Below are positions 13,445-33,371 of a stretch of 64,000 nt of DNA, one piece after another. Each line of letters opens with the position of its first letter. Positions within the stretch are counted from its first letter, which is position 1. Origin of the DNA: Euglena gracilis. Taxonomy: Eukaryota. The position numbers and the translations under genes were made by a program. The stretch spans positions 16,448,140 to 16,512,139 of the forward strand of contig CP154954.1 of NCBI GenBank assembly GCA_039621445.1, read 5' to 3'. The notes below the pieces were generated by a model, which worked only from the letters and a program-made list of their open reading frames with translations, had not been told where the DNA came from and made no database searches.

Positions 13445-13693
13445 AAATAACAATAATAATAATAATAATAATAAATATGTGCATTGTGCAAAAATCCGAA
13501 AATGTAAAAAAGGGCTGGGGAATTCCCTTTGGGTCAATTTTGGCAGACAGCAATCTTTTCAAATGCTTTCCAGCCCTTTTCTTGTTGTCCCCTGAAAAAT
13601 TATCATGCAGATTATATGCAAATTGTTGTTGTTGTTGTGGTTGTTGTTGTTGTTGTTGTTGCTGTGGTTGTTGTTGTTGTTGTTGTTGTTGTT
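13445..13693. repeat. (AAT)n at 13445-13473 and (GTT)n at 13623-13693 microsatellites
   Basis: Directly visible. Confidence 0.95.
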
Positions 13694-15119
13694 AAAATTA
13701 TTGCAAAAACTATGCAAATTATGTGGAATTATGGAGGATTATGCCTCCCACCCCCAACCCTGCCTTAATGCTTCAATTACCCCTCCGAAACACATCGCCT
13801 CAACCATGTCCCCCCCTCGGGGGCATAACCTCCCTTAAAAGAAGCACAGGGTCCTGCAAGCGCAGTGTCCACATAAAAATGCACCCCCCCCCACCGCCGG
13901 TCCACTACGAGCGCACCCGTTCTTCTATTTGTGGGTGGGTCAGGAATGGGACATCAATGCAAATTGCGGAGGACCCCGTGTGCAAGCACAATGCATTTTG
14001 TGAGGACGCTTTCTCCCGTTAGTCTCCTCCTGGCTAGTTCCAAACACACACAATTGATTGGATGAAACTGTCACACGACTGGATTGAATGTTCCTCCACG
14101 ATTGACGGCAAAGCTGGGGTTGCCAACTTTAGGGGACCAAATTGCATATTAAGAATTTCAGCAAGCCAGCACAAAATTCAAAATTGGCCAAGAACATTAA
14201 AGGGGGGGGGGCAAGATCGCAAGTTAAGGCTAAAGGGCAACGAGTTTGCATGGAAGGAGGAGGGGTGCCAAATGCCCAGGGGGGGGGCAAGCGAGGGGGG
14301 AGGTACCTGCACAGCAAATGCCTGGACCTTTCCACACAGATGGGCTGAAAAACAGCGGGTTATGCGCTTATGGGGAACTGGGGTGAGGTCGGTTCAGTTT
14401 CTTGGCACTTCCAACATCGGTTGTGCTTGTTGTGAGGGAAGTCGGTTCAGTGAACACCACAGAACACTCCCTGGCTGGCAAATCATTTTCCAATGACTGC
14501 CACCTTGCCAGCCCCAAACCGCATTGGCCCGCCGATCTAAGCATTGGAAAATATGAATCAGAGTGGTGTTGCCCGCACAAAGAGGAAGTACGAGTTGGAA
14601 AGATGGACCATAAAACGGAATGAGAAACCTCCCTTTTTCCCCTTCAAAAAGAAGAAATCAAAACCACAAAAACTCATTTGTTTTTGAAAAAAGACGATAT
14701 GTTTAATGGGACTTTGGTTTATTGCCGAGCTGTAAAAACACAAACTTAATTAACTTTGAAACCTTTGATGCGGTTTGATTGTTCCAGGAATGTCGCTTTG
14801 ACACGGGGGTGTGGGTGCAAAAGAATGGTAACAATAATGAAAACAGCAAATAACAGGGAAAGGGGTGAGTGTCAACAACATGGCGTGGACGGGATAAGGT
14901 GGAGAACTTCCAAAATTTCCACAACTGGGGATGAAACTCATGAACTGGGGTCCAGGGAGATTCAAGCTCAGTACAACCTTTATCAGGAAAGGTGGTTTCA
15001 AAAGCAGGAAGCCCCTAGCTCGCAAATAATTCCCCAGCTGGCGACCCCAGAACCCCAGAAGGGAGGGCGGATCCACAAAAAATTGCTCAACCACCCTGGC
15101 AGTTGGGGAGGGGGTCCAC

Positions 15120-15592
15120 CAGGGTTTGATACAAGGACAGGTGGGGGGGGGGGGGGCCGGGCCCCCCCCCTGCGGACCAGGAGAGGGGGGACACCCCCCC
15201 GGGGGTCGGTAAGCAATTGTATGGTCCGGACCCCCCCCCTGCGGACCAGGAGGGGGGGGACACCCCCCCACCTAAACAGTGGCGCGGTCCAGGTGATCGA
15301 ATTTCAGCCCTTCGCGAAGCGCCGGGCCGAAAATTTTTGATCCCCCAAAACGACCCAAAGTGCCATTTTGGGCACTTTTTGGGCAAAAATTTGCCAAAAA
15401 TGCAAAAAAAATTCGGCGCAAAATGCTGGAGGAAAAAATTGACCCTTTTTGGGGGGGGGTCCCGGGTACCCCCCCCCAGGGTCGGTCCGGACCCCCCTGG
15501 CAGGTGGGGGGGGGGGTCCGGACCCCCCCCTGCGGGGGGGGGGGGGCACCCCTCCACCTTAACCATGTACGCCCTCCTTGTATCAAATCCTG
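15120..15592. mobile_element. hAT-type MITE (473 bp)
   Basis: 18-bp TIRs cagggtttgatacaagga / tccttgtatcaaatcctg with 1 mismatch. Perfect 8-bp TSD GGGTCCAC at 15112-15119 and 15593-15600. Internal ggtccggacccc and cctgcggaccagg repeats. Confidence 0.93.
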
Positions 15593-16599
15593 GGGTCCAC
15601 CCTCCCACCAAACACAAACTCGGCTGGAAGTCTTTCAAAAAAGTTCCGGTCTGGCCTTCGGTCGGGACAGACTGGCCCATTGTGCACCTCCCCCGCCCCC
15701 ACCCCCCCTGGTTGTTTTGGTTCTTGAAAACCCATCTGTCCCCTGGAGGCAGGTGTGGGGTGAAATGCGGTGGCACTGCCAGTGGCACTGCGGGCCGTTA
15801 CACCACTTGTCTTTTTTTTCCCTTTTTAACTTGGCCTTGTTAAAGTTGGCCTGCGGCCACAACTTGCAACCTTGGCCCAAAAATTTTAATATTCTTCGCC
15901 AATTTGTGCACAGCCTACCGAAACTCTTACCGTGCATACTTGGCCATCCATTGTAGCCCCAGCAAGCGTTGCCACCCGGGGGGGCAACGCTTTGGTCTGA
16001 GGGGATAGCTGCCTCCGCTACTTTGTTGGGCCGGTGCTGCTGGTTCCCTCTTCAAGACGTTGACACAAAATTTGCCAAGATACTGCCGATATTTCTTTTC
16101 CCGAAAAACTCTCTGTTGACCATTGCAAAGTTGCACCCCAGTCCCTGTGTCAACAGAAAAACAGCCTGAATGGTTCGCCCCCATATGCCGGTAACGATTC
16201 GTCCAACGATCCATAAACCTCAAATCAAAATCAAATCAAAAAGACCTCAAATGGCCAAAAAAAAAGGTCAAAGCAGCAAACAAAACAGCCGAATATGGCC
16301 AAAATGGCTGAAAACGTCAAACAGTGGCCAAAAAATGCCGACATCGCCTTGCATTGCCCTGCATCCCCAAAATCAAGAACCTCACGGCCGGGAATGCACT
16401 TTTCTTGTTGAGTCACAAAATTTAGGCAGTTTTAGTGAAAATGCGCATCCGCGTATTTCGGAAGCGGAGTGCGCAGGTGCGCATTCTGAATGATTGCGTG
16501 CCTCTTCCAGACTGGGTGTAAACACCACAAAAATGAGCTGTTTGGATTAACACGACCATAGGGACCACCCCCTTGGATACTGCTTCAACTCCATATCAT

Positions 16600-17580
16600 G
16601 CTGTTTACAGCTGTTTCACAACGACTGTGGTACAGTGCGTGTGCGTGGATGGGCACACACTCAGCACACCACACGGCATGTGGAACACGAGCCACGCAGG
16701 CCAACCTGGACCTGGGTGTGCCACCTTGTGTTTATCAGTGTGTGCTGATGGCTTCCGGGGGCAGGGTCTAGTGAACCAGGGATGAGCCTGGGAAGGAACT
16801 CCTTGCGGCCACAGAGACACAGCCCTCCCAAGGTCAAAACAATGTAGGCGTCACTGAGTGTCAAGGCCGAAGAATGTGCACCTGCGTATTTTTTGGAAAC
16901 CCAAAAGAATGCGCAGGTGTGCATTTTTTTTGGAATGGACACAGGCTGTGGGAAGGGGGAATGCGCACATGTGAATTGATGTTGAAGGACACATTGGGTA
17001 TGGCCTGTTGTTTGCCTGCCTTGAATCCGAGCTGTGCACCGCTATGATGTGGTTTCGGGCTTGCAGAACAAGGGCATGTGAGGGGGAGATGAAAAAAAGA
17101 ATCACCCCTTGGCAACAACGTCGCTGTACCACACCACACCCTGAAACACGATACTTGCAGCGGTGTGGAAAAACCTGGGCTCGGCAACGGCAGGAGTCAA
17201 AGCACGAATTCATGTCCTTCAGTGACAGGGGAACTGCCCCCCTGCAGCTCAAGTCATATAACAAATCAGAATGCGCACCTGCGCATTCCATTTCACCCGC
17301 TGCAGTCCACTGCCCAGCCCAGCGTATGCTGCTCTCATGAATGTGTGGAGCACGTCACAACGCACGTGTAACCGTCCCCCACACGGCGGAGGCGATGGGC
17401 CGGTTGCTGCCGGCGTTGTCTGACCCCACGCCCCAGAGCGTGCATGGCAGCCAATGGTCGCCCTGAACAACCTTATGTTGGGCTGCAGTGCACGGTGCCA
17501 GGAGCACTGTGCCCCACAAGTAGGGTCAACGCAGGGGACTGTGTCTGGTTCCACACATACAGCACTCACTGGGTTGACAC
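16600..17580 (-). pseudogene. Degenerate CxC5-like cluster plus the N-terminal part of a KDZ-like transposase
   Basis: In order on the minus strand: VEPDTVPCVDPTCGAQC..NIRLFRATIGC (CxC5-like), then FPHRCKYRVSGCGVV/[frameshift]SDVVAK (compare HxCxxxGC..VxDGxxK), then HTDKHK..GWPAWLVFHMPCGVL (compare CxTxK..G..PCGII). The downstream catalytic motifs are absent. Confidence 0.45.
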
Positions 17581-18149
17581 CTCGAGAGCGAAACACGCCC
17601 ATCGCCACCTTCGGTATCTCTCAAAAACGGTCTGTAAACACAGAATTATTTCACAATCCAAATGTACTCAAAGAAGCGAACACCACTGGTCAGTCCTTGC
17701 CCCAAAATTTATCCAGGCCCTTGAGACTGTGAGCACATCATAAAAGCACAAGCACATCATAAAAAAAAACCTGGCGGTAAACCCAAGATTTTTTTCCGTT
17801 CTGCTTTTTCTGTGTATTCTACTGTGTCGCACCATGGGAAAACGGATGAGAAAGGGACTTCAGTGCCCGAGGAAATTTCTCAGTGACGGGCACCCTGATT
17901 CCCAACTGCGGTCAGCAGTCTTTCATGGCATGAGTAAAAAGCTGGTGAATGCGCACATGCGGAAAAAAGCGTCCTGTTCCTTTCTTCAAATGACAGCCAC
18001 ACTGCTGAATTTTGTACTCCCAGGTGGGAATGTCACCACCCACGCCAACTCCCCCCGCCGGTTCTGCAGTGTGAAGCCACGGGGCTGATGTGTAGACCTC
18101 CCTGCGCGGATCCAATGGTGTACGAGGACAAGGCAGCCCTGGAGCAAAA

Positions 18150-18352
18150 CTCGGCAAAGGAGGACCACCACCTGTGGCCTTGTTGGCAACAAACGTCACC
18201 CACCACACAGCACCCTTATTTATCATGTGCTCAGAGTCGACGCTCCAGCACTGAAAACAACACCACTGCTGGCCGCTGTGAAGACCAAGGAAATCACATA
18301 TATACACACACTTTCTCCACACACTCCGTCCGCAATGGCTGCAGTCAAACAT
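18150..18352 (-). pseudogene. Degenerate PHD-finger C-terminal half followed by a PWWP-like motif
   Basis: FDCSHCGRSVWRKCV...QQWCCFQC fits CxxCxxxx(H)xxC...WxCxxC with His replaced by Trp. It is followed by KGAVWWVTFVAN/[frameshift]GHRWWSS. Confidence 0.4.
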
Positions 18353-21187
18353 TGAACATTGGGGTGAATGCGCACATGCGCATTCCCTTTGTGTCTCCCC
18401 TTAAAGCACCCTGGTAGGAGATTGACACACAGGGCCATGCCAAACAACTCAGCACACAAGGTGGAGGCACAGCCCAGGAGACATACACCCTACTCTGGTG
18501 GCATCCACTTGTGCAATGAGATGCCTCTGAAATCGCTGACAAAAAAGGCCAGCAGTGCACCATGGGGGTTGCCCTGTCCCAATGCTGTCACTGGGTTCGG
18601 GAGTGCGAGGCACAGCTCCCCAACAACACAGAGAATGCGCACATGAGCACTCCCTCTCAAGAAATGCGCAGGTGCGCACTCTTGTGGATGCCCAGCGCTG
18701 CTCCCCTCCTGCTCATCTTCAGGTAGAACCACACCCAGCCAACGAAGGAATGGCCCCAAGAGTGCGCACGTGCACATTCTTGCGCCTCATGCAACCTCGA
18801 GACCTGTTTGTGAGGGTTGTTCTGGAGGTGCAGTCTGTGGCAAACAGGGTTGAAGTGGGGCTCCGCTCAGGAGCTTTAGGAACCAGTGAAGCACAGCAAA
18901 GGAGTGCCAGCCAGCCCCCCCCCCCCCCATACCCAGCACCCCATCCCAACCGTCAGACCTAAACTCAGGTGGCCCCACATGGTGATGTGCCATGGTGCCT
19001 ATGAGAAGGCGCATGCAGAGCAGACACCGTGCACGGCTGGATGGATGCTATGCCCGCATGTGTTTTGGAGGGGTGCAGTGCACCGTGTGGAATGCAAACC
19101 CCCTGAGGCAGGGCACCGAGCCCTCCTTTACAAACACCTGGCATGGGTTTAAATACACCGTCACCCACCACTCTCTGAAAGCATACTAACCACACACTAA
19201 CCACACACCAGCACCCTCTCGTGTCCTGCTTCCAACACAGGGCACAGAACCTCCCCTCCACTCTAACCATGAAGACCACGGTACCTCCTTCCCCTAACCA
19301 CCCCTGGGAGCCACAATAACCGTCCAAAATTTCAGGAAAAGGCCGGGGAGGGGGGTGAATGCGCACCTGCTCATTCACTGGGCACCACAAAACAGGGGGG
19401 ACAGCGGCAGGTACAACGTCTTCACCTGACCAGGGTTCGTCCTCGTGAAACAGCGTTTTGTGTCGCACCTACTTCGGCAGACGGGAGGTTTCCCCCAGTC
19501 GGCGGAGGTGCTAAATCATCAATTTCAAAACGAAAAAAGTTGGTTTACCCAGTAAAAAAACACGGGGGTCGAAAGTAATGGTACCCATTTTGGTACAAGG
19601 GGCTTCAGCTGACGGGTGCGCCGCCCCGTCAAGTGATGGCAACACAACTGGACACAAAAGAATGCGCAGGTGCGCAAAAAACCACCAAAAATGAAAAGTG
19701 CATTCCCAGCCGTCTAAGTTAGACTCCACAATTACTGCATCGCCCTGCACCAGCGAAGGTGGTTGCCCCCCCCCCCCAGGCGCCCTGGACCCGATTGAAC
19801 GTTAGGCCAGGGTACCAACCATGCGTAAAACAAGCCAAAACGCCCTAAAATTGGGCGCAAAGTTGCAAATTAAGGCTGAAGTTTAGGAAGGTCAAGTTTG
19901 CATGTAAGGAGGAGGGGGGGGGCAAGCGCCTGGGGGGGGGAAGCGCCTGGGGGGGGTACCAACACCCAAGGATTTCCAGCCAAGCCACGCAAGGAACCTG
20001 TGGGGCGGGCGATCGAGTCTTGGCCCGCAGACGCGAGAGCCAAAGCTATTACACACGCAACGCAGAGGACAAGCGACACGTGACTCGCAGAGCTTGCAGA
20101 GCTTCCGAGCTATAGAGGGTGGAAGCGTTATAGCTCCCAAGGAGCTATAAAAACAAGAGCGCGAAAAATTGGGGCCCTTGATTCATCAGATGGGAACGCC
20201 AACAGAATGGTCCCGGGGCTTGGCCTGCGCCTGCAACTGCCGGGCACTGCAGAACACAAGCCACAAATGTCACCGTGGGGGAAAGGAAGGGTAAAAAATG
20301 AGCGGGGACAGGGGGGTAGGACCCCTTGGAGGGTGTGTGAGTTGGACCACCCCTCCCTCTGTGCAAAAAATTCTTAAAGCTCTTTGCACCGGAAAAAAAA
20401 CCGGGCCTTGAAAAAGGCCCCAAAAAGCGCACTTTTGAAAAAAATTGGTCAAAACCTACGGCGAAAATTTCATTTTCCCGGCGAGAAGCGCCGGAAAATT
20501 GTTTTTGGTTCCTGGTGAGGGATTTTAGAATGATCCTGCACTTGTGCAGGATCATTGGAGATTTTGAACAAAATTAATTTTTTTGCCTGCCCCACTAGAT
20601 AGTTCCTGTAGGACGTCCCACTAATTACTACCCCCACTTAAGGAAGCACATTTCACAGTGATTCCGAAAATGCACCCGAATTTTTTGGTTATCCCAACCC
20701 AACCCAATCCCCCCCCCGCCCCCCCCCCCCCCCCCCCACTAGCCCAGGGACCTCGAGGAGAATCGAGCCTGGGGATGGCGTTGCTTGCAGGCTGTTGTCC
20801 TTTTGAAAACACCGTTGGATTGCTTCGGCACTGAAGGTTGCTTGACTGGAGGGGATATCTGCTAGTTGAGACACCCACCCAATTGCTTTGAAGAAAATGT
20901 GCCGGATGCACAATACCCCCCCCCCCCGGCGTTTGGCCACCCTCCTCCTCACATGCAAACTTGGCCCCTGTAGGGATGGCCTTTTGCACATGGCCGCCAA
21001 AATTCTTCACATGCAAACTTGGCCCCCCTAATGTTGGCCCCCTGGCCTTACCTTCATGGCCTGGGCCAAGCGCCCGGGTGGGACAGCAAGAAGAAAATTT
21101 GGCTAGACTGACCGATGGTCCTGTCAGCCATTTCATGCAAAGTCTGTGTTGATGTGGTCTCGATGCTGCCAAGGCCGCAAAAAGCAT

Positions 21188-21190
<3 letters not shown>

Positions 21191-21251
<61 letters not shown>

Positions 21252-21319
21252 CGTGTGCGTGCGTGTGCGTGTGTGCGTGTGCATGTGCATGTGTGCGTGT
21301 GTGCATGTGTGTGTGTGTG

Positions 21320-21383
<64 letters not shown>
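21191..21383. repeat. (GT)n microsatellite with GCGT interruptions
   Basis: Directly visible. Confidence 0.97.
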
Positions 21384-21386
<3 letters not shown>

Positions 21387-21481
21387 GGTTTACCACCGGT
21401 TCGTGCTAGGAAGCATGAAATCCGGTTCGTGATTGTTCGTGATTGTTCGTGATTGTTCGTGATTGTTCGTGATTGTTCGTG
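21384..21481 (+). mobile_element. hAT-like transposon end with 10-bp subterminal tandem repeats
   Basis: It begins cagggtttaccaccggttcgtg, similar to 28056 cagggtttctccggtttccgtg, followed by (ttcgtgattg)x5. The other end was not identified. Confidence 0.55.
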
Positions 21482-21888
21482 CTTCCAAAAAACCCCCCGG
21501 TTTTACGTTTTCCTTGGCGAAATAGGTGATTCATCTTGGACTTTGGCTCCTTGTGCCTCTTTTAATCTAAATATTCAGGTTAATGGGGAAAGAATTGTTT
21601 ATCCATGGGGAAAAAAATTGTTTATCTACCCCCAATAAACAACTTGCTGACAATATGGCAAATCCAAAAATGGAGGACAAATCTCTATGACGACCCACAA
21701 GACGGTTCCTAGAGGCTGAAATTCGATTGCTGCCCCCCCCCCCCGAGTCCAAAGAACACCAAAATGGCTAACATGTCGGTCCCAGGATGCAATATGTCGC
21801 TTTGCATGTGTCTTCTCGGCCCAGTGCACTGAAATATGCACCTCTCACTTTCCATCACTCCACCAAACTGAAAAAGGTGACAACAGGG

Positions 21889-22008
<120 letters not shown>

Positions 22009-22332
22009 CATGAATTTCACCGTTTTTGAATTTTTGATAAACAGGAACCTTCGAAGTCTTGAAGTCGTTCAAACATTGAACTTGTGTTCGGCTCCTGGGG
22101 ATTTGAAAAAAAACAGCCTTTTTGCAAGTTGCTGTAAGAATATGTGTGGTGTCGTTGCCAGGGAAACGGTGCCCCAGATCAGCCAGAGGGCAGCTGGTGG
22201 CGGACGTGTATAACAAATAGGCGAGGGCAAGGCTCCCCGTTCTACCGGTGCGACATACGCAATGTGAAAAGGCCTTTCGCTGGTGCAACCAGGGGCTCAG
22301 GGGCGCAAGGCTGAGTTGCCACAAATGATCGC

Positions 22333-23997: not shown

Positions 23998-23999
23998 CA

Positions 24000-24087
<88 letters not shown>

Positions 24088-24088
24088 C
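23998..24088. repeat. (GCAC)n microsatellite
   Basis: Directly visible. Confidence 0.97.
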
Positions 24089-24448
24089 TAATACACACCA
24101 GCTCAGGGAGCAACCTGCAGTGTGCACATGCTGCTTGTCCGGGCTGCACAGGTGTCCGCTGCCCCAATCCTGCGCATTATCCATTATTTCTCAAATTATG
24201 GGCTATTTATACACTGATTTGTTTATTTGAAATATACTGGTAATTTTTATTCAGCTTGAGTTCTCTTATGTGAAAAAAAGAGCAGATATGGAAGCATAAA
24301 CACCTGAATAGCCAAGCCTGCACTTAAGGGCCCCCAGAGGGTGGGTCGAACTGAATTGGCACTAGCTGGCTCGCTGGAAACAAAAATACTTCAGAGTCGC
24401 AGCAGGCTGCAAAAAAAATTGTTCCCGGTGGTCGCAATGAAAAAAAAA

Positions 24449-25056
<608 letters not shown>

Positions 25057-25116
25057 TGTTCTGATTGTGCAAAAAAATGTATGGTGTTGCATAATGAATC
25101 ATGCTATGTGTACGTT

Positions 25117-32187: not shown

Positions 32188-33371
32188 CAGGTTGCCAACA
32201 CAAAAAACATACCCCCCCTGACAGCACAAAAAACATACCCCCCATCTGGTGAGTAAAGCTATAAGCAGCAATGCGGCCAATCAAGCGCTGGATTTGCCGC
32301 GAATGCAACCGTCATGCAAAAGGGCGGGATATGGGAAGGTCAGTAGCGGGTGTGTGACAGCCGGCATGCAGTTAGGCATGCTGTCATAAAATGCTTTGAC
32401 CTGTTCGGGGGAGATTTCTGCGAAGGCAGCTTGCAAAGCCAACCACAACTGGTCTTTGCCCGCAAACGCATGCCCACGCAACTTGTGCAGCACCATGGGC
32501 CACAAATGTTCAATGGGGTTAAGGTCTGGCGACTGTGGTGGCCAAACCCCTCCGTTGAAGCGCAGCACTCGCTTCCACCTCATCCACGCTGTGGTACTCC
32601 GCGCACGGTGGGGAGAAGCCCCGTCCTGCTGGAAGCGGTAGCCCGCAGTCCTGCACAATGGATTGTGAATATGTCGAATATTGGCGTGCAAACACCAGGC
32701 GTTTCCGCTTGTTCACCGAGGACAGTAATGGCTTCCTTGCTGCGGTTTGGCAGCACAAGCCCGCCTTCCGTAGGATTGTACGGATGAATTCTGGAGATGG
32801 TTTTGGCGGTATCTGAAATTCACACAAAAAAAGCATATGCATAACGATTGACAAACACGCCTTAACCACTGCCCCTGCTGGGCGGGCTAACAATGCGGTG
32901 CTAACTCGGAGGAAATGCTCGTCGGCGATTTGTTTGCAATTCCAAAAAGGGTTTTTCATTGCCATTTTTAATATACCTCTTCGAAACCTGTGGGAATTTC
33001 GGAATGGAATATAATTTATTGCAAACGTCGCACACCGTGCTGAATATTTCTTTGCCTTTTGCTGATTGGATCCCGATCCAACTTTGCGATCAAGCGTGCA
33101 ACGTTCTTTGAATCTGGATGCCATACCTGGGATAAGTGGCTGGTGTGTACAAGCTGGGTATATACCTTGCACTGTAGCTTTGGATATTTTCTCGTGATTT
33201 TGCAATCTTATTGAGCGACCAGGGTGGAACAAAAGAGAGATACGTCTCCACGCGCTTGCGCAAAACCGCTCTGTCGGCAGTGCTCATTTTTGGGGGCATG
33301 AGAGCAACTGGGGACAAAATGGAATGCGGAATTTGCTTTTTGGGGGGTATGTTTTTTGTGTTGGCAACCTG
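32188..33371 (-). mobile_element. Tc1/mariner (IS630-Tc1-mariner) transposon, internally deleted, 1184 bp
   Basis: Perfect 30-bp TIRs caggttgccaacacaaaaaacatacccccc (32188-32217) and its inverse (33342-33371). TA on both sides (32186-32187 and 33372-33373). Inner direct repeat cacaaaaaacataccccc at ~32225. Transposase motifs inside. Confidence 0.97.
32281..33299 (-). pseudogene. Tc1-like transposase pseudogene (D37E), three candidate introns
   Basis: Reconstructed as MPPKMST..., HTH region ISKATVQG|MASRFKERCTLDRKVGSG, ARKPLLSSVNKRKRLVFARQY, and FQQDGASPH...WPPQSPDLNPIEHLW. There is a +1 frameshift in the A-run near 33200. The first catalytic Asp region is missing at a junction near 32650-32670. 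Candidate introns: 33127-33165, 32988-33035 and 32813-32860. Confidence 0.92.

Follow-up and report, generated by a model that had tools for sequence, protein, structure and literature searches.

Terminal inverted repeats and boundaries of the element

The 64-kb stretch of DNA analysed here (the window) contains a transposon copy of about 3.33 kb that is bounded by terminal inverted repeats (TIRs) and carries a family of internal palindromes (Table 1). The left terminus, ACGGCCGGGAATGCACTTTTC (16384-16404, plus strand), recurs as its reverse complement with one mismatch at 19693-19713. When the terminus pattern was searched with up to three mismatches, these were the sole two matches in 64 kb as compared to a mean of 0.00 in 100 shuffles, in agreement with the earlier note on this DNA, which had described 21-bp TIRs with one mismatch. 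In a repeat search, the inverted arms could be extended to 26 nt at 88% identity. Neither blastn nor the terminus pattern revealed a second element copy in the window.

Contigs of the public DNA run X2 (about 2.27 Gb in total) were aligned to the window. Forty-two of them, together with four RNA reads, stopped matching exactly at 16384. Upstream of this position the letters of the 42 contigs were variable (agreement 0.45), with a consensus ending in CTTAG. Among the best-supported rows of loose ends listed (there are 1,132 further rows), the pile-up occurred at the left end only. In other copies CTTAG lies outside ACGG at the left end, and its mirror image, CTAAG, is present at the 19718 end. 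Because of this correspondence, the full terminus probably comprises 26 bp, CTTAG plus ACGGCYGGGAATGCACTTTTC, and the outermost ca. 5 nt of the left terminus are probably missing from the copy starting at 16384, leaving it with a damaged left tip. Relative to the extent proposed previously, 16384-19713, the right end probably lies 5 nt further out, at 19718.

A single X2 contig joins 16385 to 19719 with one C between the two sides and a depth of 182.5, about half of that of the flanks. We regard this one contig as a candidate empty allele. The right flank that it shares with the window copy begins at 19719, which makes for a precise right junction provided that 19718 is the last base of the element. 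On the left side the duplication is absent, and the reading as an empty allele needs a secondary deletion there to fit. With CTTAG counted inside the element, one extra event suffices to accommodate the contig. Two other delimitations, ACGG...CCGT as the end with a 5-bp CTTAG-type duplication and GACGG...CCGTC as the end with a TWA duplication, each need two extra events and were not adopted. No target-site duplication is visible at the copy 16384-19718: the 8 nt beyond either choice of boundary hold no direct repeat, and the left junction seems to be deleted in this copy. Inspection of the flanks of other copies for the length of a duplication, as recommended earlier, established that the left flanks end in CTTAG; no constant duplication could be derived from them.

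An internal palindrome family

Between the termini, the element contains a palindrome of 20 bases, GAATGCGC-N4-GCGCATTC, in 11 good and two degenerate copies, the latter (16438-16457 and about 17947-17966) having been added by the repeat search. The pattern GAATGCGCANNTGCGCATTC with up to three mismatches gave 11 matches, all within 16467-19679, against 0.04 expected, and the exact 9-mer GAATGCGCA occurs eight times inside the element and not at all in the remaining 60.7 kb of the window. A palindrome family private to the interval between the TIRs had been claimed before and is fully corroborated. Sequences flanking the 20-mers are not conserved, and the half-site is similar to the GAATGC..AC core of the terminus. 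The perfect palindrome at 17269 is predicted to fold into an 8-bp stem with a 4-nt loop (-8.7 kcal/mol, z -5.1), and a hairpin of -6.8 kcal/mol is predicted for the left subterminal one. In the family consensus from the X2 contigs, CpGs of decayed palindromes are restored. Position 16454 is T>C in 658,188 of 659,654 of the run X2 depth, and consensus C residues at 16970, 16972 and 16974 correspond to CpGs that are gone from the window's palindrome at 16959.

Table 1. Features of the element (positions refer to the window)
Feature	Position	Strand	Basis and remarks
Whole transposon copy, ~3.33 kb	16384..19718	no strand	run X2 summed contig depth
Left TIR, inner 21 nt	16384..16404	+	2 matches vs 0 expected
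Palindrome, degenerate	16438..16457	no strand	repeat search; consensus C at 16454 restores GCGCATT
Palindrome, 1 mismatch, subterminal, 84 nt from left end	16467..16486	no strand	pattern search
Palindrome, 3 mismatches	16872..16891	no strand	pattern search
Palindrome, 2 mismatches	16907..16926	no strand	pattern search
Palindrome, 3 mismatches	16959..16978	no strand	pattern search
Palindrome, perfect (0 mismatches)	17269..17288	no strand	pattern search
Palindrome, half-decayed, left arm intact	17947..17966	no strand	repeat search (17942-17969)
Palindrome, perfect (0 mismatches)	18366..18385	no strand	pattern search; fold -9.5 kcal/mol
Palindrome, 2 mismatches	18633..18652	no strand	pattern search
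Palindrome, 2 mismatches	18662..18681	no strand	pattern search; endpoint of the joint from 18387 to 18663
Palindrome, 2 mismatches	18760..18779	no strand	pattern search
Palindrome, 1 mismatch	19357..19376	no strand	pattern search
Palindrome, 3 mismatches, subterminal, about 35-40 nt from right end	19660..19679	no strand	pattern search and fold
Right TIR, 21 nt with 1 mismatch, plus outer CTAAG	19693..19718	-	sequence

Copies elsewhere and deletion variants

Summed contig depth in run X2, which is not equivalent to copy number, amounted to 90,054-462,458 in the bins covering the element (16285-19824) versus 378-606 in the flanking bins (15931-16284 and 20002-20355), i.e. it was about 200-1,000 times higher inside the element. 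The 32,665 matching contig pieces fell into classes of at least 99% (4,749), 95-99% (10,945) and 90-95% likeness (16,971). Many joints resulting from internal deletions were present among the contigs. One of them connects 16486, at the left subterminal palindrome, to 19683 and leaves a MITE-sized derivative in which only the two ends are kept. Relative P0001, a protein database entry, lacks 87 nt between the palindromes at 16872 and 16959. Of the 50 joint endpoints listed, about 10 coincide with palindromes, a weak enrichment over the 6-7 expected by their share of the length.

Because of the depth step, the 42 contigs breaking at 16384 and the contig joining 16385 to 19719, we conclude that the stretch represents a single member of a mobile family present in high copy number. 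A lack of other copies with these termini had been named as one outcome that would refute the proposed element; the depth step, the 42 contigs and the internal-deletion variants document that such copies exist. It is very improbable that the interval is not a transposon, that is, a dispersed or segmentally duplicated repeat with an incidental TIR and with palindromes that are host regulatory or structural sites. The absence of a visible target duplication and of a linked transposase would suit such a repeat, as would the richness of the window in other complex repeats, but the 21-nt inverted repeat with its one mismatch sits exactly at the depth step from about 400 to more than 90,000, 16384 is the exact point beyond which the 42 contigs run into unrelated flanks, and one contig is without the whole interval.

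The 16-nt core of the terminus was also found at 120 or more loci in metagenomes. None of 120 extended with TTTTC or CTTAG and none of these 120 listed loci was similar to the element by blastn. They were dismissed as relatives and are considered chance matches.

Coding capacity

The earlier note had read the minus strand of the element as a series of Cys/His-rich remnants (PHD-like, PWWP-like, CxC5-like and others) of a KDZ transposase. Pfam includes a model for the KDZ transposase. An hmmscan of all six frames against Pfam-A, with X at stop codons, retrieved no family at E≤10, be it the KDZ catalytic domain or the CxC5, CxC6, PHD and PWWP domains named earlier for such a search. Searches of the window with Rfam (gathering thresholds) and ARAGORN yielded no match either. 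The longest ORF of the element has 167 aa as compared to a mean of 197 aa in composition-matched random sequence, and four ORFs of at least 150 aa face 2.2 ± 1.3 in simulation. In first-order Markov simulations, Cys and His reached 5.65 ± 0.39% and 4.19 ± 0.34%, respectively, versus 6.07% and 4.84% in the element. The palindrome, which reads ECAxAH, NAxxRI or MRxCAF in translation, contributes 26 of the 202 Cys and 28 of the 161 His residues while making up 7.8% of the length. For N-terminal CxC clusters, too, there was no Pfam match, and the Cys fraction is near the dinucleotide expectation. The HxCxxxGC..DxxxK remnant could not be recovered, the string H.C...GC being absent by pattern search. 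The TDK and PCGV strings do exist on the minus strand (16731-16739 and 16665-16676) and that part of the claim stands; no Pfam domain lies there or elsewhere. The element is without a coding signal and the proposed transposase remnants stem from its base composition. Nor is a transposase "invisible because of frameshifts", as had been suggested, since there is no detectable coding remnant that could be frameshifted.

An internally deleted, frameshifted KDZ element whose minus strand still holds remnants of PHD, PWWP, CxC and the catalytic core is therefore exceedingly improbable. The element resembles KDZ transposons in its general TIR-bounded plan, which is common to most DNA transposon superfamilies and not diagnostic, in being multi-copy and in the two short strings. 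Against this stand the empty six-frame Pfam scan, ORF lengths and Cys/His contents that do not exceed random expectation and related database ORFs (see below) that are all of 202 aa or less and, in the 10 of 11 that were scanned, without a domain. Furthermore, the accessible part of PMC12730594 gives 8-bp target-site duplications for Zisupton and Dileera, whereas the element has no 8-bp direct repeat in its flanks, although its left junction seems deleted. As far as that part of the source goes, KDZ elements have been described mainly from fungi, with Zisupton as the sole well-characterised member (PMC12730594).

Related ORFs in protein databases

A phmmer search of 1.84 billion representative proteins with one (minus) frame gave 11 matches, all of 95-202 aa and representing ORFs from other copies. 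Ten of these 11 were scanned and all ten were devoid of real domains, one of them having two sub-threshold matches (E ~0.1). All 14 retrieved proteins map solely within 16594-19696. One relative, P0002, is annotated as a transcript of Euglena gracilis.

These relatives raise the question of whether the family encodes or encoded a novel minus-strand protein of no known family, the window copy having decayed. All 11 matches were in the queried minus frame, and several of them align unbroken in frame across 110-140 residues, with 35-57% identity. For the distant relatives P0003, P0006 and P0007 the alignment keeps to one frame for about 140 residues (35-40% identity); this exceeds what neutral DNA would be expected to show and may point to a coding past. 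Blocks of the type LTPAVAEPRFFHTAA..VFQGVVW are preserved in three relatives, and the minus-strand ORF 17912-18400 has one relative while the overlapping plus-strand ORF 17938-18417 has none. However, phmmer covered one frame only and the contrast of one versus no relative is weak. The relatives differ in frame among themselves, P0002 being shifted relative to the window copy, and the P0007 alignment extends into the TIR and a palindrome, both of which are cis elements. With ORFs no longer than random and with neither a domain nor a match above 202 aa, we judge a novel protein of this kind to be unlikely.

RNA and the code of nonconventional introns

In the raw RNA run X21, 136 reads fell on the window stretch, 114 of them lying on it only partly. 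Inside the element their depth was 0-2.7, on both strands. Among the 136 reads there was no splice junction at the element, the DNA here being almost without RNA cover. The available part of PMC12501133 describes euglenid nonconventional introns by the code 5'-N3CDG-/-CH'GN5-6|R, the bases behind the motifs being paired. The plus strand of the element fits this code with TCA-CGG at 16382-16387 and CCG-TCTAA|G at 19710-19718. Like such introns, it has termini of the form CGG...CCG backed by at least 17 paired bases, a 3-nt spacer to a possible 5' boundary and, on the 3' side, a 5-nt spacer followed by a purine. The likeness has to be read with caution, as the code is low in information and most TIRs holding a CDG triplet would fit, and the window copy differs from such introns in lying in DNA nearly free of RNA cover, with no spliced read among the 136.

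Discussion

Most probably, the stretch 16384-19718 represents one member of a high-copy, non-autonomous, protein-less cut-and-paste (TIR) family in a large, repeat-rich Euglena-like genome. The 2.27 Gb of the X2 contigs compare with 2.4 Gb and more than 50% repeats estimated for E. gracilis in the part of PMC12455990 at hand, and P0002 is likewise assigned to this species. The term cut-and-paste is taken from the anatomy alone, because neither a transposase nor an autonomous relative was found. Like non-autonomous TIR transposons and their MITE-sized deletion derivatives, the element has short TIRs, occurs in high copy number, codes for no protein, shows varied internal deletions (among them one that spares just the two ends) and has a candidate empty allele. 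It differs from them in its length (3.3 kb is long for a protein-less element) and in its 13 dispersed copies of one 20-bp palindrome. Canonical Harbinger elements create 3-bp duplications, according to the accessible part of PMC12730594. The right flank starts with TTA in the candidate empty allele and is compatible with such a duplication, but the left-flank consensus of other copies contains no constant 3-nt duplication next to CTTAG, and the element has no transposase or Myb-like ORF, whereas autonomous PIF/Harbinger (PHIS) copies encode a DDE transposase and a second, Myb/SANT ORF. Ac/Ds and En/Spm carry reiterated subterminal transposase-binding motifs. The element likewise repeats a short terminus-related motif internally in both orientations, but its motif is a dimeric palindrome that is spread over the whole 3.3 kb and not confined to the ends.

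A protein-less element of this type would be mobilised in trans by a transposase encoded elsewhere. In the window copy, the left tip and an adjacent target duplication have probably been lost by a small deletion of 8 + n bp, n being the length of the duplication; lacking its left end, this copy can probably no longer move. Another haplotype or strain appears to lack the insertion, which would then be hemizygous. The 13 internal copies of GAATGCGC-N4-GCGCATTC belong to the ancestral make-up of the family. Judging from the likeness of the half-site to the terminus core, the palindromes could tentatively be taken as repeated sites to which the family's transposase binds. Being dispersed 20-bp repeats and hairpins, they may also have supplied breakpoints for internal rearrangements (deletions and duplications) by which the family diversified.

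As a KDZ element, it would have widened that superfamily in a notable way, but this assignment is not upheld. The result is instead a cleanly delimited TIR family of very high abundance in a euglenid-type genome. For annotation, the element is a practical reminder that zinc-finger remnants can be mimicked by the Cys/His-rich strings that arise when CA/TG-rich repeats and GCGC-containing palindromes are translated. In its accessible part, a 2013 paper states that no transposable element had been identified in euglenids up to then (PMC3935182), and a transposon origin of nonconventional introns is still treated as a suspicion in the corresponding part of a 2025 paper (PMC12501133). It is a doubtful proposition that the window holds the type copy of an undescribed euglenid DNA-transposon family, possibly of a new superfamily, with a transposase recognising GAATGC(GC)AC sites repeated as the 13 internal palindromes. 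If so, and with termini that fit the intron code, the MITE-sized derivatives would be concrete candidates for the long-proposed, still unproven transposon source of nonconventional introns. Its defined ends, its short derivatives and its possible presence/absence polymorphism make the family a specific test case for the origin of these introns from transposons.

Termini and boundaries of the element

The inverted termini of 21 nt that the earlier note had described proved to be real. The left terminus, ACGGCCGGGAATGCACTTTTC, recurs at the right as its reverse complement, and at up to three mismatches this pattern gave just two matches in the 64-kb window and none in 100 dinucleotide-preserving shuffles. 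In a repeat search the arms lengthened, as an inverted pair, to 26 nt at 88%. The unmatched letters left of 16384 have a consensus that ends in CTTAG in a public DNA run and in an RNA run alike, and the right end of the window copy reads ...CCGT CTAAG, the mirror of CTTAG at the left ends of other copies. Given this mirrored arrangement, CTTAG is most likely element sequence. The terminus would then comprise 26 bp, the element would end on the right at 19718, and the window copy would lack its left tip, a loss that has probably left this copy unable to move.

Among the contigs of the DNA run, one passes directly from 16385 to 19719, a single C lying in between. Its depth of 182.5 is about half the local flank depth, and it covers 76 nt of the left flank, where two small differences occur. 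We read this one contig as an insertion-free allele or haplotype. If it is an empty allele, the right junction would be exact (element ...CTAAG followed by host TTAGACTCC), and the filled left junction would have lost 8 + n bp, namely one host base, the target duplication (n) and seven tip bases. This boundary placement was preferred to others since it requires one additional event where they require two, a choice that has a single contig behind it. No fixed triplet was present beside CTTAG in the left flanks of other copies among the DNA-run contigs; the 3-bp duplication of a PIF/Harbinger or CACTA-like element is compatible with the element but unproven. Duplications of 8 bp are typical of hAT, Zisupton and similar elements.

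Mobility, abundance and age of the family

The genome of E. gracilis has 2.4 Gb with >50% repeats, as cited in PMC12455990. No second copy of the element was found in the 64-kb window. Contigs of the DNA run, a set of ~2.27 Gb from the same organism, were aligned on 15400-20700. Summed contig depth, which is not equal to copy number, was 606 and 436 in two flank bins on the left side and 378 and 437 in two on the right, against 90,054-462,458 throughout the bins of 16285-19824. A total of 32,665 contig pieces aligned, 4,749 of them at ≥99% likeness, 10,945 at 95-99% and 16,971 at 90-95%. Thousands of distinct variants, each at about single-copy depth, mean that the family numbers at least in the hundreds and that its copies differ in age. 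In 42 contigs and four RNA-run reads the match was lost exactly at 16384 and the letters beyond disagreed (agreement 0.45), indicating a sharp-ended repeat inserted at many places. Many contigs of the DNA run skipped internal parts, and the 16486 to 19683 joint of one contig left the two ends, one palindrome and little else, a MITE-sized derivative. The depth step, the break at 16384 and the deletion variants thus bear out the claim of a TIR-bounded element, and we conclude that it qualifies as, and works like, a non-autonomous TIR transposon. Most likely, a transposase acting in trans recognises the 26-bp ends and moves such an element by cut and paste.

The observed/expected ratio of CpG was 0.55 for the element, against 0.70 for the window as a whole. 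Most departures of the window copy from the family majority are a T in place of C or an A in place of G, also inside decayed palindromes (16454, 16970 and 16972). The palindromes are therefore ancestral to the family, and the window copy is eroding.

Absence of KDZ transposase remnants

The earlier note had taken the element for an internally deleted KDZ transposon with PHD, PWWP and CxC remnants on the minus strand, and had called for a profile search. This search, done as a Pfam-A scan of all six frames with X at each stop, gave no family at E ≤ 10. The longest stop-to-stop ORFs measured 167, 167, 162 and 159 aa, whereas in composition-matched first-order Markov simulations the longest ORF averaged 197 aa and attained 167 aa in 77% of cases; ORFs of at least 150 aa numbered four versus 2.2 ± 1.3 simulated. 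Over the three minus frames Cys amounted to 6.07% (5.65 ± 0.39 expected) and His to 4.84% (4.19 ± 0.34 expected). Read in its different frames, the palindrome yields ECAxAH, NAxxRI or MRxCAF. Its copies make up 7.8% of the length and account for 26 of the 202 Cys and 28 of the 161 His. The 'cysteine clusters' are a product of CA/TG-rich composition plus palindromes.

A phmmer search with minus frame 3 only (X at stops) against 1.84 billion representative proteins returned 11 proteins, all of 95-202 aa. Ten of these were scanned for Pfam domains and had none, one showing two sub-threshold matches (E about 0.1). Together with three cluster members, 14 proteins were fetched, and tblastn placed all of them only within 16594-19696; they are ORF calls made on other members of the element family. 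One relative, P0002, shifts out of the frame of the window copy and later returns to it, and is labelled by its source as a Euglena gracilis transcript model; the remaining relatives come from Logan assemblies and a single JGI contig.

For three distant relatives (P0003, P0006 and P0007) the alignment stays in one frame for about 110-140 residues, with 35-40% identity, and the minus-strand ORF at 17912-18400 found a relative in a word-indexed search while the overlapping plus-strand ORF found none. Both observations would fit a protein of no known kind hidden in the element family. However, one of the distant-relative alignments crosses terminus and palindrome, which are cis elements, and the sensitive phmmer search covered one frame only; we consider such a protein improbable.

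Zisupton and Dileera make an 8-bp target duplication (PMC12730594). No 8-bp direct repeat was seen at the element flanks, where the left junction of the window copy is damaged. The element shows none of the diagnostic KDZ features tested, and a decayed KDZ transposase was rejected because there is no domain, the ORFs do not exceed random length and Cys and His are compositional. Hence termini and palindromes hold and the protein remnants do not: the family is mobile and TIR-bounded, but it does not belong to KDZ. No description of it was found among the Euglena genome and transposon papers searched, and the family may be undescribed.

The palindrome family

The private palindrome family claimed for the element was confirmed, all 11 good sites lying between the termini (0.04 expected). 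A repeat-family search added two degenerate copies, and the exact half-site GAATGCGCA occurs eight times inside the element and not once in the other 60.7 kb of the window. Since the sequence flanking the 20-mer differs between copies, the repeated unit is the palindrome itself, best written GAATGCGC-N4-GCGCATTC. As a single DNA strand the palindrome forms a hairpin with 8 bp in the stem and 4 nt in the loop; the two perfect copies reach -8.7 and -9.5 kcal/mol.

In Ac/Ds and En/Spm, subterminal motifs act as reiterated transposase-binding sites. By sequence comparison, the terminus core GGGAATGCAC resembles the palindrome arm GAATGCGCAC minus two bases. Our preferred, tentative reading is that the palindromes are putative reiterated dimeric binding sites of the protein that recognises the ends. 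Alternatively or in addition, they may act as hairpins or dispersed repeats from which internal deletions and duplications arise. This is supported by several deletion joints and by the relative P0001, in which precisely the 87 nt between the palindrome at 16872 and the one at 16959 are missing, but among the joint endpoints listed, about 10 of 50 lie at palindromes, a weak enrichment.

Surroundings in the window

The G/C-run repeat left of the element had a summed contig depth of 1.7 million, above the element's own, and is a very abundant low-complexity class in the genome. In the transcribed segment to the right, X21 RNA depth was 14.8 and 10.8 in bin 20002-20178, and loose read ends marked the edges (n=22 before 19993, n=11 behind 20205). 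A 125-nt contig within it had depths of 358 and 126 in X15 and X16, runs taken as RNA by guess. GT-AG was absent at the boundaries of the transcribed segment on both strands, and Rfam gave no match for it; the segment may represent a small RNA or else an exon whose boundaries are nonconventional.

Features of the element and its surroundings (window coordinates)
Feature	Position	Strand	Remarks
Microsatellite blocks, (GTT)n/(GGT)n	13584-13712, 24441-25100, 21149-21466, 21865-22040		long, partly inverted; two arrays among microsatellite-type blocks have a period of about 8 nt
G/C-run repeat	15400-15576		9-16-nt G or C runs, short spacers
Left terminus	16384-16404
Palindrome sites	16467-19679		11 matches to GAATGCGCANNTGCGCATTC at ≤3 mismatches
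Right terminus	19693-19713		1 mismatch
C-run/G-run arms	19742-19777, 19911-19946		inverted
Transcribed segment	19993-20205		280 bp right of element
125-nt contig	20056-20180
Inverted repeat pair	21886-21987, 23998-24099		102 nt, 94% complementary, 2.0 kb apart; may be another TIR element, ends longer and better preserved than those studied
Tc1/mariner remnant	32519-33283	-	254-aa open frame, Tc1/Tc3-type transposase HTH (PF01498, E 4e-11, above curated cut-off); no relation to studied element
Nested and tandem complex repeats	about 36400-61400		25 kb, units every 1.45-2.45 kb, up to 12 copies at 90-100% identity, many inverted partners

Relation to nonconventional introns

PMC12501133 gives the nonconventional-intron code of Euglena as 5'-N3CDG-/-CH'GN5-6|R with pairing behind the motifs. 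The plus-strand termini fit this code (TCA-CGG at 16382-16387 and CCG-TCTAA|G at 19710-19718, then at least 17 paired bases), which is so loose that most inverted termini with a CDG triplet would match. No spliced reads were seen at the element in the RNA run. A MITE-like origin of these introns has been proposed in PMC3935182 and PMC12501133, which name no element. With a defined family that has short derivatives, the idea that nonconventional introns originate from MITEs becomes testable.
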